Shown here: one piece after another, positions 11,148 through 25,548 of the stretch
How the letters are laid out: the number at the start of each line of letters is the position of its first letter
Position numbering within the stretch: the first letter of the stretch is position 1
NCBI GenBank assembly: GCA_038889235.1
Contig: JAWAHN010000001.1
Coordinates: 824,499 to 856,498, forward strand
Length of the DNA stretch: 32,000 bases
Source of the DNA: Candidatus Jordarchaeales archaeon
GTDB lineage: Archaea; Asgardarchaeota; Jordiarchaeia; Jordiarchaeales; Freyrarchaeaceae
Reading direction: 5' to 3'
The notes under the pieces: generated by a model
Seen by the model: the letters and a program-made list of their open reading frames with translations, nothing else
Database searches by the model: none
Told to the model about the DNA's origin: nothing
Position numbers and translations under genes: made by a program

Positions 11148-12205
11148 GTGGTGGTTGTGTTGCCCAGGATGCTCCCGCCGGAGGGTGTAAAGAGGAAAAT
11201 TATAGTTAAAAGTGATGACGAAACTAGCGAAGAATATGGTAAGCGCCCTGAAGAGAGAAGCATTGAAGAGCACTTGAAGGGATGCTTCGTTAACATAGAT
11301 AAACCAGCAGGACCTACTAGTCACGAAGTCTCTTCTTGGGTTAGGAAAATTTTGGAGTGCTCGAAAACGGGGCACGCCGGAACACTAGAGCCCCTTCTCA
11401 ATGAGGGGGGCGGTGAAATCCTAAGGTTACCGGCGTTCTACCAGTGGCTATAGGTTCGGCTACCAAGCTTGTACAAGCTCTTCACCTTATAGGGAAAGAG
11501 TATGTATGCGTTATGAGGTTGCATGGCGATGTTGACCCGGAGAGAGTTCAAAGCGTCTGTAAGGAGTTTATTGGACCGATTTATCAAAGGCCTCCAATAC
11601 GTTCCTCTGTGAAGCGGAGGCTTAGGGTGAGACAAATATACTACCTTGATGTGCTCGAAATTGAGGGGAGAAACGTCTTACTAAAAGTGGGGTGCGAGTC
11701 TGGCACGTACATAAGGAAGCTTTGCCACGACATAGGAGAAGTCTTGGGTTGTGGAGCGCACATGCGTGAGCTTAGGAGAACGCGTAGTGGACCATTTACT
11801 GAAGACAATATTGTAACTTTGCACGACTTAAAAGATGCTTACGTTTTCTGGAAGGAAGAAAAGGACGAGACATATATTAGAAAGGTGTTATTACCCTTGG
11901 AGACTGGAGTGCAACACTTACCCAAGTTTTACGTGCGTGACTCAACTGTTGATGCCATATGCCATGGAGCAGATTTAGCCATTCCCGGAATTGTCAAAGT
12001 TGAAGATGGAGTTGAAAAAGGGGATGTTGTGGCGATTTTGACGCTCAAAGGCGAACTTGTCGCCCTAGGGACTGCAATGATGACGCTTGAGGAAGTTATG
12101 AGGGAGAAAAGAGGTATAGCTGTTAAGACAAAAAGAGTGGTGATGGAGAAGGGTACGTATCCGAAGCTTTGGAAGAGCAAGAAAGAGTCGAACAAAAGTG
12201 GGTGA
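11148..12205 (+). CDS. cbf5: Cbf5/TruB pseudouridine synthase, spliced: join(11148..11388,11418..12205), 342 aa (335 aa from ATG 11169)
   Basis: Two track ORFs join to give GHAGTL-D-PKVTGVLPVAIG after removal of a 29-nt BHB intron. DKPAGPTSHEV, YQRPP, SGTYIRKLCHD and a PUA domain are present. Confidence 0.96.
11389..11417 (+). other. BHB-type mRNA intron in cbf5 (29 nt)
   Basis: Central helix CACU/GGUG, bulges AG^A and AA^A, intron hairpin GCCCCU(U)CUC-AAU-GAGGGGGGC. Splicing recreates GAT (catalytic Asp). Confidence 0.93.
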
Positions 12206-12220
12206 AAGTGAGGGGGGTCC

Positions 12221-12234
12221 CGAAAAATATAAAA
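12221..12234 (+). promoter_or_regulatory. Candidate BRE/TATA promoter for rpl44e-rps27e-eIF2a
   Basis: CGAAAAATATAAAA about 50 nt upstream of the rpl44e TTG. Confidence 0.55.
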
Positions 12235-12284
12235 TCGCGCTGAATTTTTCCTTTCCCAAAAGCGATGCGGAGGTTAGGTGAGGG

Positions 12285-12601
12285 TTGAAGTACCCCAAAG
12301 TTAGGCGGACGTATTGCCCACGGTGTAAGAAGCACACGGAACACATGGTTAGCGTTTACAAGAAAGGAAAAGACCGAGCTTTAGCCGCGGGAGCTAGACG
12401 CTACGCTAGGAAGAAGCGAGGTTACGGAAGCCAGCCTAATCCCTCCTACGCTGCGTAGAGGGGGGTAAACCCGTACAGAGAGAGTTTGCGAAAATAACTA
12501 AGAAGGTAAGCTTTAAACTGAAGTGTAAAGAGTGCGGGCACATTCTACACACGAAGGGCATTCGCCTGAAGAAGGTCGAGGTAGTTGAGAAAGGAGGGTG
12601 A
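12285..12601 (+). CDS. rpl44e: 50S ribosomal protein eL42 (L44e), spliced: join(12285..12439,12469..12601), 95 aa; absent from the ORF track
   Basis: Manual translation [20 protein letters not shown]...[10 protein letters not shown]|[24 protein letters not shown]...[10 protein letters not shown]. Canonical position before rps27e. Confidence 0.95.
12440..12468 (+). other. BHB-type mRNA intron in rpl44e (29 nt)
   Basis: Central helix GCCU/GGGU, bulges AA^U and AA^A, hairpin CCCU(C)CUACG-CUG-CGUAGAGGG. In-frame TAG at 12456. Splicing gives CCT AAA CCC (P-K-P). Confidence 0.92.
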
Positions 12602-12607
12602 TATACG

Positions 12608-23145: not shown

Positions 23146-23161
23146 AACACAATCCTCCTAA

Positions 23162-23725
23162 TCATTCTTTCTTTTCTTGACTCTTCTCCACTTCTTCTTT
23201 TATCCATTCCAGTTTTCCTAGGAAGGGTTGCCTCATGGTCAACCCTATCTTCCCACCCTTTGCCCCTCCACTCATAGACACAGAGACCACTCTTGCCCTA
23301 ACGACGTCGTTTTGCATTATCTGCCTCTTTGTCTCCTTTCCCGTCAATATTCCAGCCTTGCGGTCATAGTCTATGAAGTCGTCCATAAGCTGGGATATGT
23401 GTATCAAACCTTCCAAAGGACCGAGACGCACAAAAACCCCGAAGTCAACGACGGCTGTCACAATACCTTCAACTATCTCGTTTTGCTCTGGTTTAAAGGT
23501 GAGGATCTTGAAGACCGCCTCATGAAATGCTCCACCGTCACCTGGGATGAGCCGACCGACGCCGACATCTTCGACATCTATAACACTGAGCACTATCCCT
23601 AGTTCAGGGTCCATGATTTTTTCGTACTCCTGCCTAAGCATTTCAAGAGCCACTTTTTCAACCGGCTCGCCAAACCTTTCAGGAGGTATTCTTATAACGT
23701 CTTTAAGTGTAATAAGTTTGTACAT
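23162..23725 (-). CDS. rpoE1: RNA polymerase subunit Rpo7 (RpoE1)
   Basis: From ATG 23725 (GGGGGT SD): VIRIPPERFG, GDGGAFH, FGVFVRLGPLEGLIHISQ and KIGLTMRQPFLGKLEWI motifs. Confidence 0.96.
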   Translation of the reverse strand: MYKLITLKDVIRIPPERFGEPVEKVALEMLRQEYEKIMDPELGIVLSVIDVEDVGVGRLIPGDGGAFHEAVFKILTFKPEQNEIVEGIVTAVVDFGVFVRLGPLEGLIHISQLMDDFIDYDRKAGILTGKETKRQIMQNDVVRARVVSVSMSGGAKGGKIGLTMRQPFLGKLEWIKEEVEKSQEKKE

Positions 23726-23840
23726 GCAACAAACCCCCGGAGCGCGTAAGCATCTGGCAGTTAAGGAGAACGCAGCTGTAACACCGCCTACAAGTAAACA
23801 TTTCGCACAACTGTTCAGCTTCACGACTAACACAATTCCC

Positions 23841-23856
23841 TTTATAAAATTTCTCC
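23841..23856 (-). promoter_or_regulatory. Candidate internal BRE/TATA promoter upstream of rpoE1
   Basis: Minus-strand GGAGAAATTTTATAAA overlapping the PIN stop codon, about 115 nt before the rpoE1 ATG. Confidence 0.45.
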
Positions 23857-24255
23857 ATCAATACATAGATGGCTTCTCTGCCTTAAGTAAATTACAGGAA
23901 TCCCCGCCTTTCTGAGACGCTTGCGAAGAACATTGTCGTTGGTGGCAACGACGCAACGTTCCCTTCTGGCGTATTCAAGTATAGCATCATCTACACCCAC
24001 ACTCTCAACCCCTGACGGGCAGACCTTAAAAGCCTTCTGCCTGACGAAGTTTAAAGCTGCCTTGGCTAGTTTTCCCCCCTCGCTGCCCTTCTCAGCCAAC
24101 TTTTCTAGCTCTTCTAGCACCTTATCTAGAACCACGACCTCGTAACTTCTACCAACGACAACGCCCAGTTCCGAGAAAAAATCCCTCCCGAACAGGAAGG
24201 GAGCTATTAAAAAGTTGCTGTCAACAACTATCTTAACGTATGAGCCCCCACCCAA
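23842..24255 (-). CDS. PIN-domain ribonuclease (Fcf1/Utp24-like), eIF2g-linked
   Basis: IVVDSNFL, VLEEL, VDDAIL, VATNDNVLRKRL and GIPVIYLR motifs; TTG 24255 follows a GGAGG SD. Confidence 0.92.
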   Translation of the reverse strand: MGGGSYVKIVVDSNFLIAPFLFGRDFFSELGVVVGRSYEVVVLDKVLEELEKLAEKGSEGGKLAKAALNFVRQKAFKVCPSGVESVGVDDAILEYARRERCVVATNDNVLRKRLRKAGIPVIYLRQRSHLCIDGEIL

Positions 24256-25548
24256 TAAGCCTCCACCTTCCCGAAACAATGCGGCTTACAGCAACTCTTT
24301 GACCGTCCTCAGCGCACACAGGACGGCGTAGCTTAATTTCAACCTCGTCGCCCCTAACCGACGAAATGGTGCCTACGGTTACAGCCGACCCGACATTAAG
24401 CATCAGCGACTCGTTAACATGCACGTTCTCCACCTTTGCAAGCTCCTCGCTCCCCACAACTCTTTCCATTAAGTGAAGCTCGATGCACAAGTCATCGCGC
24501 ACAGGTGGAAGCGTTCCGGGGGCTCCAACAACGTTTCCTATGAGACCATCAGCCTTCGTCAAAGACGGGTCAAGTTTTGTTCCAATACCGATCAAGCCTC
24601 CAGGCAGAGCCTCTTCAAGCCACACGTCACCCGCCTGCAAACTGACAACGTCGGCGTAGATGGGCTCAAATCCCCCCTTACCAGCAACCCCAGGACGTAT
24701 TTCTATTTCGTCGCCAACTCTAACCTTGCCCTGAATTATTGTTCCGCCTATGACTCCTCCAACAAGATCCTTCGGCTTAGTCCCTGGCTTGTTAACATCA
24801 AATGACCTAGCAATGTACATTCTCAGAGGCTTACTTGGGTCCCTGACAGGGTCAGGGATGTGTTTCTCCATGAAGTACAATAAAACGTCTAAGTTGACCC
24901 CTAAGACCGCTGAGACAGGGATGATGGGAGCGTCTTCAGCGAAAGTTCCACTAATAAACTTCTTAATCTGTCTGAAGTTTTCCATCGCCTTCTCCCTTGA
25001 GACAAGCTCGACCTTGTTCTGAACGATAACAATGTTCTTCACACCAACGATTTCCAAGGCTGCAAAATGTTCCCGCGTCTGCGGTTGAGGACACGGCTCA
25101 TTAGCAGCAATAACGAAAATGCAACCATCCATAAGTGACGCACCACTAATCATAGTGGCCATAAGTCTCTCATGGCCAGGCGAGTCGACGAAACTAATCT
25201 TGCGCACAAACTCGGCTTCTCCTCCACACTTCGGGCACTTCCACCCTCCAGCCATAGCCAGAGTGAAATAGTTACCAGGAGGGGGACAGGACGGGCACCT
25301 TAAAACAACAGCGTCAGCGTAACCCAGCTTAATTGTAACCCCACGGCGCTTTTCCTCACTATGACGCGCGGCCCAAATGCCCGTTAAAGCTTGTACAAGC
25401 GTGGTTTTTGGCCCGTGGAAACCTATCCCCACGGATTGCCATGATCAACGTCTCCGGCGCCAACTGTTCAGCAACAACTAGCGTGTCCGGCCGTTCCCAC
25501 GGAAACCAAGGCCTGCGTAGTCATGGCTTTTTTACAAGCTTCACTCAA
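24233..25548 (-). CDS. eif2g: Translation initiation factor aIF2 gamma, spliced: complement(join(24233..25406,25436..25451,25485..25548)), 417 aa
   Basis: Spliced N-terminus MSEACKKAMTTQALVSVGTAG-H-VDHG-K-TTLVQALTG, followed by IKLGYAD, Zn ribbon, DSPGHE, QNKVE and RWRLIG. Alternative start ATG 25524. Confidence 0.95.
25407..25435 (-). other. BHB-type mRNA intron 2 in eIF2-gamma (29 nt)
   Basis: Central helix UGGC/GCCA (perfect), bulges AA^U and AA^A, hairpin CCGUGGGGA-UAGG-UUUCCACGG; in-frame UAG. Splicing gives GGC AAA ACC (G-K-T). Confidence 0.93.
25452..25484 (-). other. BHB-type mRNA intron 1 in eIF2-gamma (33 nt)
   Basis: Central helix CCGG/CCGG, bulges AC^A and AG^A, 11-bp hairpin CGCUAGUUGUU-GCUG-AACAGUUGGCG; in-frame UGA. 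Splicing gives GGA CAC GTT (G-H-V). Confidence 0.93.

Follow-up and report, generated by a model that had tools for sequence, protein, structure and literature searches.

Putative tRNA-type introns in the messages of essential genes of an Asgard archaeon of the Jordarchaeales

A hot-spring Asgard archaeon (Candidatus Jordarchaeales archaeon, GenBank assembly GCA_038889235.1) carries five short inserts in four genes, cbf5, rpl44e, kae1 and the gene for aIF2-gamma, all within a 32,000-nucleotide (nt) stretch of contig JAWAHN010000001.1 (positions 824,499 to 856,498; hereafter the window). The window is an archaeal neighbourhood of ribosomal-protein and translation genes, and the inserts measure 29, 29, 14, 33 and 29 nt, the last two both lying in the aIF2-gamma gene. 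Judged from the DNA, these inserts are very probably bulge-helix-bulge (BHB) introns that are removed by the tRNA-splicing machinery. We prefer this reading because it alone accounts together for the geometry of the inserts, the repair of the reading frame, covariation, presence and absence among relatives, and the set of enzymes that the genome encodes. The genome under study, labelled G000, has 2.14 Mb on 8 contigs and is 95% complete; the genomes of relatives are labelled G001 to G038. The lineage, an Asgard group near Jordarchaeales/Freyarchaeia, apparently uses its tRNA-splicing machinery on many mRNAs.

Geometry of the inserts and the splicing enzymes

All four genes are broken as called. 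On the + strand, cbf5 appears as two open reading frames (ORFs), 11148-11453 and 11444-12205, and the rpl44e ORF, which starts at 12285, is stopped by a TAG. On the - strand, kae1 likewise appears as two ORFs (21915-21586 and 21580-20858), and the called aIF2-gamma ORF begins at GTG 25432, inside the P-loop. The predicted exons and introns are as follows, with base pairs given in bp and protein lengths in amino acids (aa).

11148..11388, + strand: cbf5 exon 1, from the DKCLD domain (Pfam DKCLD, E 1.8e-17) to GTL plus base 1 of the catalytic Asp codon; its frame runs into exon 2 after removal of the predicted intron
11389..11417, + strand: predicted cbf5 intron, 29 nt; central helix CACU:GGUG, bulges AGA and AAA, 7-bp hairpin; splits the catalytic Asp codon G/AU
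11418..12205, + strand: cbf5 exon 2 including the stop; TruB_N, TruB_C_2 and PUA (Pfam); predicted spliced ORF 342 aa
12285..12439, + strand: rpl44e (eL42) exon 1; Pfam Ribosomal_L44 positions 1-36 of 76
12440..12468, + strand: predicted rpl44e intron, 29 nt; GCCU:GGGU, bulges AAU and AAA, 5-bp hairpin with one bulged C, outer helix 0 (relaxed HBh'); an in-frame TAG lies inside
12469..12598, + strand: rpl44e exon 2 including the stop; Pfam Ribosomal_L44 positions 38-76 of 76; predicted spliced ORF 94 aa
21614..21915, - strand: kae1 exon 1; Pfam TsaD positions 2-61
21600..21613, - strand: predicted kae1 intron, 14 nt, near the smallest possible; GGGG:CUCC, bulges UUA and AAA, GC/GC stem with a GAA loop, outer helix 8 bp (strict hBHBh')
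20858..21599, - strand: kae1 exon 2 including the stop; Pfam TsaD positions 70-264; predicted spliced ORF 347 aa
25485..25524, - strand: aIF2-gamma exon 1; MTTQALVSVGTAG plus base 1 of a His codon
25452..25484, - strand: predicted aIF2-gamma intron 1, 33 nt, in frame and containing TGA; CCGG:CCGG, bulges ACA and AGA, 11-bp hairpin
25436..25451, - strand: aIF2-gamma exon 2, a 16-nt micro-exon that encodes part of the P-loop (H-VDHG-K)
25407..25435, - strand: predicted aIF2-gamma intron 2, 29 nt; UGGC:GCCA, bulges AAU and AAA, 9-bp hairpin; splits the P-loop Lys codon
24233..25406, - strand: aIF2-gamma exon 3 including the stop; Pfam GTP_EFTU, GTP_EFTU_D2 and eIF2_C; predicted spliced ORF 409 aa

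The BHB rule that we applied consists of four exon bases, a 3-nt bulge, a hairpin, four intron bases and a second 3-nt bulge, both strands being cut after the second base of their bulge. It holds for all five inserts, with four of four central pairs, 3-nt bulges on opposite strands and the correct handedness, and unconstrained folding gives the same hairpins. The inner helix measures 7 bp in cbf5, 5 bp in rpl44e, 2 bp in kae1, and 11 and 9 bp in aIF2-gamma introns 1 and 2, and the outer exon-exon helix measures 1, 0, 8, 1 and 0 bp in the same order. The kae1 insert thus has a strict hBHBh' motif and the other four have a relaxed HBh' motif, a form accepted by both (alpha-beta)2 and epsilon2 enzymes (PMC5829648).

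Removal of the inserts at the canonical cuts leaves open frames of 342, 94, 347 and 409 aa for cbf5, rpl44e, kae1 and aIF2-gamma, in which the joints read GTLDPK, SQPKP, GLGPC, AGHVD and HGKTT. Pfam coordinates carry on over the breaks (L44 1-36 then 38-76; TsaD 2-61 then 70-264). The initial annotation of the window, made from the letters and a list of ORFs, had placed five inserts at these positions, 14-33 nt long and three of them of exactly 29 nt, with 3' bulges AAA, AAA, AAA, AGA and AAA, and had proposed that cuts after the second bulge nucleotide restore the frame and a conserved motif in every case. Positions, lengths and bulges were all recovered, and the open frames and continuous Pfam coverage bear out the cuts in five of five inserts.

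The geometry filter is passed by 0.12% of all (position, length) pairs in the genome, and protein homology narrows the choice to no more than about 3 equivalent cut pairs in each gene, the cut being fixed to within 1-2 nt. Because of this low background and the few cut pairs available, the chance that all five inserts would fit the BHB rule is of the order of 1e-12. Ranking the BHB candidates of the window by folding energy was discarded as uninformative, long chance folds coming out on top.

In the proposed pathway, the four exon bases just upstream of an insert would pair in the pre-mRNA with four bases near the 3' end of the insert, giving a 4-bp helix between two 3-nt bulges, while the rest of the insert would form a hairpin. 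An (alpha-beta)2-type EndA would cut after the second base of each bulge and RtcB would join the exons. The product would be an mRNA with an intact Cbf5 catalytic Asp codon, aIF2-gamma P-loop, Kae1 GLGPC and L44e SQPKP. We infer that cleavage and ligation of this kind take place in vivo.

G000 has an RtcB gene at C1:704115-705422 and two genes of the EndA family (PF01974), at C1:1056164-1056754 and C3:444282-444869, encoding proteins of 196 and 195 aa. The best solved relatives of the 196-aa protein are the alpha subunits of the heterotetrameric Aeropyrum, Pyrobaculum and Sulfolobus enzymes (E 4e-47 to 2e-38), with the A. pernix alpha subunit (3p1z_B, E 4e-47) as the top structure match, and the alignment to the latter is gapless through the N-terminal segment. 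This segment is presumably the site of the broad-specificity L1 (crenarchaeal-specific) loop. In the 195-aa paralogue, inspected by eye, the catalytic His appears to be missing, and the protein looks like a structural beta subunit. The initial annotation had named alpha-beta and epsilon2 among the possible architectures of EndA; the gene pair found here is of the alpha-beta type, with RtcB present as well, and it points to a two-subunit (alpha-beta)2 enzyme that would assemble as a heterotetramer. Asgard archaea have been described to possess an (alpha-beta)2 EndA with the L1 insert, a type of enzyme that cuts relaxed motifs lying elsewhere than at the canonical tRNA position (PMC5829648).

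Conservation and covariation among relatives

Fourteen other genomes, from five families, have an interruption of cbf5 at the same codon. The insert is 27-35 nt long in the genomes of the same family (G001-G004) and 31-32 nt in the sister family of the same order (G005-G010), and it is found in three further Asgard families (G028 and G038; G021; G033). It is absent from most of the other relatives in the subset examined, G031 not being counted either way. The kae1 insert occupies the same site in three families, with 13-14 nt in the own family, 28-29 nt in the sister family and 28-32 nt in the family of G011, G022 and G032. In that last family, with genomes of about 1.4 Mb, the kae1 hairpin is AT-rich, and introns in cbf5, rpl44e and aIF2-gamma are lacking among the relatives searched.

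The remaining inserts have narrower distributions. The rpl44e insert occurs in both families of the order (G001-G005 and G007-G010, 29-33 nt); it is precisely missing in G006 and present in the genus-mates of G006. Intron 2 of aIF2-gamma is found in G000, G002, G003 and G004 (29-31 nt), G001 having no aIF2-gamma match and not being scorable. Intron 1 is seen solely in G000 (33 nt) and G003 (30 nt), that is, in two of four genomes of the same genus, and is absent in G002, in G004 and in all other relatives searched. The intron-less genes serve as controls (aIF2-gamma of G002 and G004 for intron 1 and, throughout family f2, for intron 2; rpl44e of G006), and they read as the predicted spliced joint, for example a contiguous GHVDHGKTT. 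The boundaries between presence and absence coincide with the predicted cut sites. The comparison of orthologues, which had been suggested along with the initial proposal, thus revealed sites and structure that are conserved and a presence or absence that differs exactly at the predicted cuts.

For aIF2-gamma, kae1 and rpl44e, the hairpin sequences are unrelated between genomes, yet the fold is retained. The first pair of the central helix of aIF2-gamma intron 2 shows a compensatory change, U-A being replaced by C-G, and on the exon side this pair uses the third, synonymous position of a His codon. Covariation was counted formally on 15 cbf5 sequences. Here 91.4% of the cells are paired, compared with 35-48% when the 3' partner is slid, and these slid controls preserve the relatedness of the sequences and still fail. 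The cbf5 central helix is paired throughout (100%), with two of its four pairs changed on both sides; the five inner pairs that were counted are all changed on both sides, which gives seven pairs together with the central helix. None of 500 shuffles reached the observed score, a figure that is not a probability because the cbf5 sequences are related.

Several observations on these sites were made in more distant organisms. In G027, a distant Asgard relative, a 28-nt AT-rich insert lies at the HG/K site of aIF2-gamma intron 2. A canonical BHB that would restore the frame was looked for in this insert and not found, and it may represent a relaxed motif or an independent event. Metagenome contig Ga0265296_1002832, from a more distant archaeon whose Cbf5 shows 49% identity, carries an insert of 23 nt at the cbf5 Asp-codon site. 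On four other metagenome contigs (L206, L207, L216 and L220) the Cbf5 homologue matches as two parts that overlap in the query (residues 36-191 and 155-288) and are separated by 1.4-1.9 kb, a pattern that could be a large insertion or a duplicated and rearranged gene. Two pattern scans of metagenomes were uninformative on splicing: the scan for the rpl44e joint gave 0 matches, and a degenerate scan for the cbf5 joint picked up 24 loci with an identity to this Cbf5 of no more than 61%, which comprise unrelated intron-less archaea and one locus with a 23-nt insert.

Extent across the genome

We compared the 2,995 ORFs of a complete relative (G011, 1,418,269 nt) with G000 by tblastn and scored an interruption wherever adjacent matches were contiguous in the query with 8-200 extra bases between them, or wherever an in-frame insertion contained a stop; no motif was used at this step. 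There are 39 such homology-defined interruptions in G000. A frame-consistent BHB with a stable hairpin is present at 13-15 of them, as against 2-4 for frame-inconsistent decoys. Twelve cases are clear, cbf5 and rpl44e of the window and the following ten elsewhere in G000.

C1:972075-972108, 34 nt: DnaG/Toprim
C1:804315-804345, 31 nt: PCMT
C1:445935-445963, 29 nt: aEF-2, DTPGHV/DF split
C1:964013-964040, 28 nt: radical-SAM protein
C1:549831-549889, 59 nt: NiFe-hydrogenase / complex-I 49-kDa-like subunit
C2:145890-145918, 29 nt: LeuD
C2:318659-318687, 29 nt: LeuC
C1:996247-996276, 30 nt: Ras/Rab-like GTPase
C3:304889-304915, 27 nt: FAD_binding_4 protein
C2:123973-123999, 27 nt: Alba

In half of these ten genes the two exons match neighbouring segments of one Pfam profile or of related ones, as in PCMT (2-59 then 61-208), GTP_EFTU (1-80 then 82-187) and Ras (8-31 then 33-161). 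Together with the window, at least 14 genes of G000 are interrupted by predicted introns of the BHB type. The counts are a lower bound because the comparison misses known introns: kae1 escaped it because G011 is itself split there, and both aIF2-gamma introns escaped it because their exons are too short. Roughly scaled from the strong matches of about 1,100 reference ORFs and the recovery of two of the five known introns, the genome might hold some 50-100 mRNA introns. An alternative scan, for BHB candidates that fuse two coding ORFs as compared with shifted-cut decoys, was abandoned, as thousands of background loci swamp the signal. Its excess of true cuts over decoys was small (about 30-90 loci), and none of the five known introns passed its initial thresholds; the background may stem from adjacent genes and from open alternative frames.

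The 15 predicted introns measure 14, 27, 27, 28, 29 (six times), 30, 31, 33, 34 and 59 nt, and their 3' bulge is AAA in eight and AAU in three. Their GC content is 0.59, as against 0.48 for the genome. The six 29-mers have a mean identity of 31% and show no sequence similarity, and they are therefore not recent copies of one element. All but one of the 15 lie nearer the 5' than the 3' end of the fused ORF, and many interrupt the best-conserved motif of their protein (catalytic Asp, P-loop, G3 motif).

The consequences for annotation are visible in Cbf5. Every Cbf5 at least 75% identical in a large protein collection is 234-255 aa long and lacks the N-terminal DKCLD domain, and many Cbf5 clusters at 58-68% identity are likewise of about 230-260 aa and without DKCLD. 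Split cbf5 genes are therefore routinely called truncated in many environmental archaea. A full-length Cbf5 of the spliced form from close relatives was not found in the protein collection, which held just forms of about 250 aa. It had been foreseen in the initial annotation that many more such introns exist genome-wide and that the genes concerned are mis-annotated. The ten further genes with a frame-consistent BHB support the first expectation at the level of DNA, and the public Cbf5 calls of about 250 aa in close relatives, truncated without exception, agree with the second.

The tRNA genes of G000 appear to be affected too. ARAGORN reports 14 tRNA genes in total, 10 of them with an intron, and most tRNA genes of this genome are presumably hidden by multiple or non-canonical introns.

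We lean towards the view that spliceosome-free enzymatic splicing of mRNA is a general layer of gene expression in the Jordarchaeales/Freyarchaeia lineage, acting on dozens of mRNAs, with introns placed mostly towards the 5' end and turning over on the timescale of species. If so, the affected mRNAs include those for aIF2-gamma, aEF-2, a ribosomal protein, Kae1, Cbf5, DnaG, Alba and a Rab-like GTPase.

Alternative readings and known systems

Several points weigh against the removal of these inserts by splicing. When sampled at 3-5%, a depth too shallow for a test, two raw metatranscriptome runs of the source study yielded no reads from the stretch, and in an RNA-contig run with a relative about 95% identical no contig over the intron sites was present among the contigs listed, nor were joints reported. 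Four of the five motifs have an outer helix of 0-1 bp and need an EndA that accepts relaxed HBh' outside a tRNA body. Such an activity is known for crenarchaeal alpha-beta enzymes, and the enzyme of this organism is a candidate for it. Coupled transcription and translation could yield truncated products from unspliced messages, and the 16-nt micro-exon of aIF2-gamma requires two close BHB folds that do not interfere with each other.

The genes might be expressed unspliced as split or truncated proteins, with the hairpins acting as terminators, attenuators or protein-binding sites, a possibility that we regard as very unlikely. Starts were indeed called downstream of the breaks, at GTG 11444 in cbf5, GTG 21580 in kae1 and GTG 25432 in aIF2-gamma. 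However, these starts stand at non-conserved places, and neither the Cbf5 catalytic Asp codon nor the aIF2-gamma P-loop survives the breaks. Sister genomes have introns that stay in frame as well as genes that lack the intron, and the intron-less relatives encode one continuous protein that equals the predicted spliced form.

Translational bypassing, in which ribosomes would hop over the inserts and the RNA would stay unspliced, is known from gene 60 of phage T4 and from the GC-rich byp elements of Magnusiomyces mitochondria. The inserts have a superficial likeness to the latter, being short GC-rich hairpins of 27-34 nt, several with a stop soon after the break. Matching take-off and landing codons would however give an ambiguity of at least 3 nt at the boundaries, whereas the boundaries observed here slide by just 1-2 nt, and the majority of inserts lie within a codon (phase 1 or 2). 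The feature that is conserved and covaries is the 4-bp exon-intron helix with its two 3-nt bulges, which bypassing does not need, and the 14-nt kae1 insert is nearly devoid of a hairpin. We give bypassing hardly any credence.

An equally slight chance attaches to cleavage by EndA at the BHB sites that is not followed by religation and would destroy or down-regulate the mRNAs. BHB cutting that does not lead to productive mRNA splicing is known in rRNA processing. Haloferax HVO_1309 offers no precedent for such a loss of message, as removal of its 5' untranslated region (5'-UTR) intron favours expression (PMC7714728). The genes of the window are essential and single-copy, and cleavage alone would therefore leave no functional protein at all. 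Degradation also does not need the exact repair of the frame seen in five of five inserts and in ten other genes.

Copy number and read support bear on the integrity of the genes. G000 holds one cbf5, one kae1 and one aIF2-gamma, further aIF2-gamma matches being EF-1alpha and a SelB-like paralogue, and L44e is matched solely as two exon pieces. A 1.4-kb aIF2-gamma stretch is mostly or wholly present in three hot-spring DNA runs from two studies, one of which, possibly the source of the assembly, is identical to the entire 14.7-kb stretch. The initial annotation had stated that intact second copies, or raw reads lacking the inserts, would speak against introns; this 95% complete genome contains no such copies of the four genes, and one DNA run matches the 14.7-kb stretch without a difference. 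That the four genes are pseudogenes or decaying alleles, or the inserts artefacts of assembly or sequencing, accords with each unspliced gene being formally broken by a frameshift or an in-frame stop, but is the least credible reading of all, given that up to 14 genomes, each assembled independently, have interruptions at these sites, that both flanks are still open at 60-88% protein identity, that second copies were not found while DNA runs carry the stretch, and that no further lesions are seen, though decay would accumulate them. The proposal of tRNA-type introns in mRNAs came out as predicted in the tests made at the level of DNA, on geometry and frame repair, copy number, conservation with covariation, presence or absence among relatives, and enzyme genes.

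BHB introns were previously described in cbf5 of Crenarchaeota (Aeropyrum, Sulfolobales and Desulfurococcales; Watanabe 2002, Yoshinari 2006, Yokobori 2009, PMC2738675). cbf5 was the only additional BHB intron reported, until one case in a 5'-UTR, HVO_1309, was added (Schwarz 2020, PMC7714728), and the literature thus agrees with the initial annotation in treating cbf5 as the established precedent (PMC2738675, PMC7714728). As in Crenarchaeota, the cbf5 intron proposed here is a short BHB or relaxed-BHB intron of the coding sequence with a variable interior, cut between bulge bases 2 and 3, and it lies at the identical site, after the first letter of the catalytic Asp codon (here CUA G/AU CCU; PMC2738675). 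EndA is hetero-oligomeric in crenarchaeal hosts and, by prediction, in this one. The host here is however an Asgard archaeon, in which cbf5 is not the sole such gene, as in Crenarchaeota, but one of at least 14, including a two-intron gene with a 16-nt micro-exon; and splicing is proven by cDNA in Crenarchaeota, whereas here it is deduced from DNA. In Haloferax volcanii, the HVO_1309 mRNA is likewise processed by the tRNA-splicing endonuclease, but this is a single case in an untranslated leader, with an uninterrupted coding sequence and an enzyme of the alpha'2 type (PMC7714728).

Multi-intron tRNA genes have been described in Freyarchaeia and Atabeyarchaeia (Valentin-Alvarado 2024, PMC11291895; bioRxiv 10.64898/2026.10.13.758758). 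These belong to the same or a sister broader lineage and share the BHB and presumably the enzymes, and their introns are short, numerous, at non-canonical places and repeatedly gained. The tRNA count of G000 (14, 10 with an intron) fits such heavily interrupted tRNA genes. The interrupted genes there encode tRNAs, whereas in the mRNAs considered here frame repair matters and translation of unspliced messages is a problem.

In eukaryotes, HAC1 and XBP1 mRNAs undergo an unconventional cytoplasmic splicing with cleavage by IRE1 and ligation by Trl1 or RtcB. Like the splicing proposed here, this process is protein-only and spliceosome-independent, acts on paired stem-loops, shifts the frame and, in metazoa, uses RtcB for ligation. 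It differs in that the nuclease is IRE1 and not EndA/TSEN, the sites are two 7-nt loops and not a BHB, and the target is single and regulated.

Term searches of the two Asgard tRNA-intron papers (PMC11291895; bioRxiv 10.64898/2026.10.13.758758) returned no mention of mRNA introns, and the full-text literature searched, to which most subscription journals do not belong, contained no BHB introns in archaeal coding genes other than cbf5. For cbf5 the novelty lies in the host lineage, the intron itself being known already. What appears new, as the literature searched does not describe it, is the presence of such introns in rpl44e, in kae1 and, twice, in aIF2-gamma, and the number of genes involved. 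The same mechanism appears to serve many genes in an Asgard archaeon, including ones indispensable for translation. If this is true, the lineage, which stands among the closest relatives of eukaryotes, would be the first among prokaryotes whose protein-coding genes broadly need the removal of introns for their expression. It makes testable how mRNA introns are tolerated under coupled transcription and translation, and offers a natural system for the gain and loss of coding-sequence introns in the absence of a spliceosome. Standard gene callers truncate or miss these genes, and completeness estimates, phylogenomic marker sets and metabolic reconstructions of these Asgard genomes are therefore affected.

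Over the whole window, comparison with G011 disclosed no split genes beyond the four, and Rfam and ARAGORN each returned 0 matches. A 1.3-kb segment at 25560-26950, upstream of EF-1alpha, stands apart in composition. It has no + strand ORF of 90 aa or more (the longest stop-to-stop frame is 112 aa), 0 Rfam matches, 0 inverted repeats, only two short two-copy direct matches and no counterpart in G011, and on the + strand it is strongly A-rich and T-poor, with an AT skew of 0.40.

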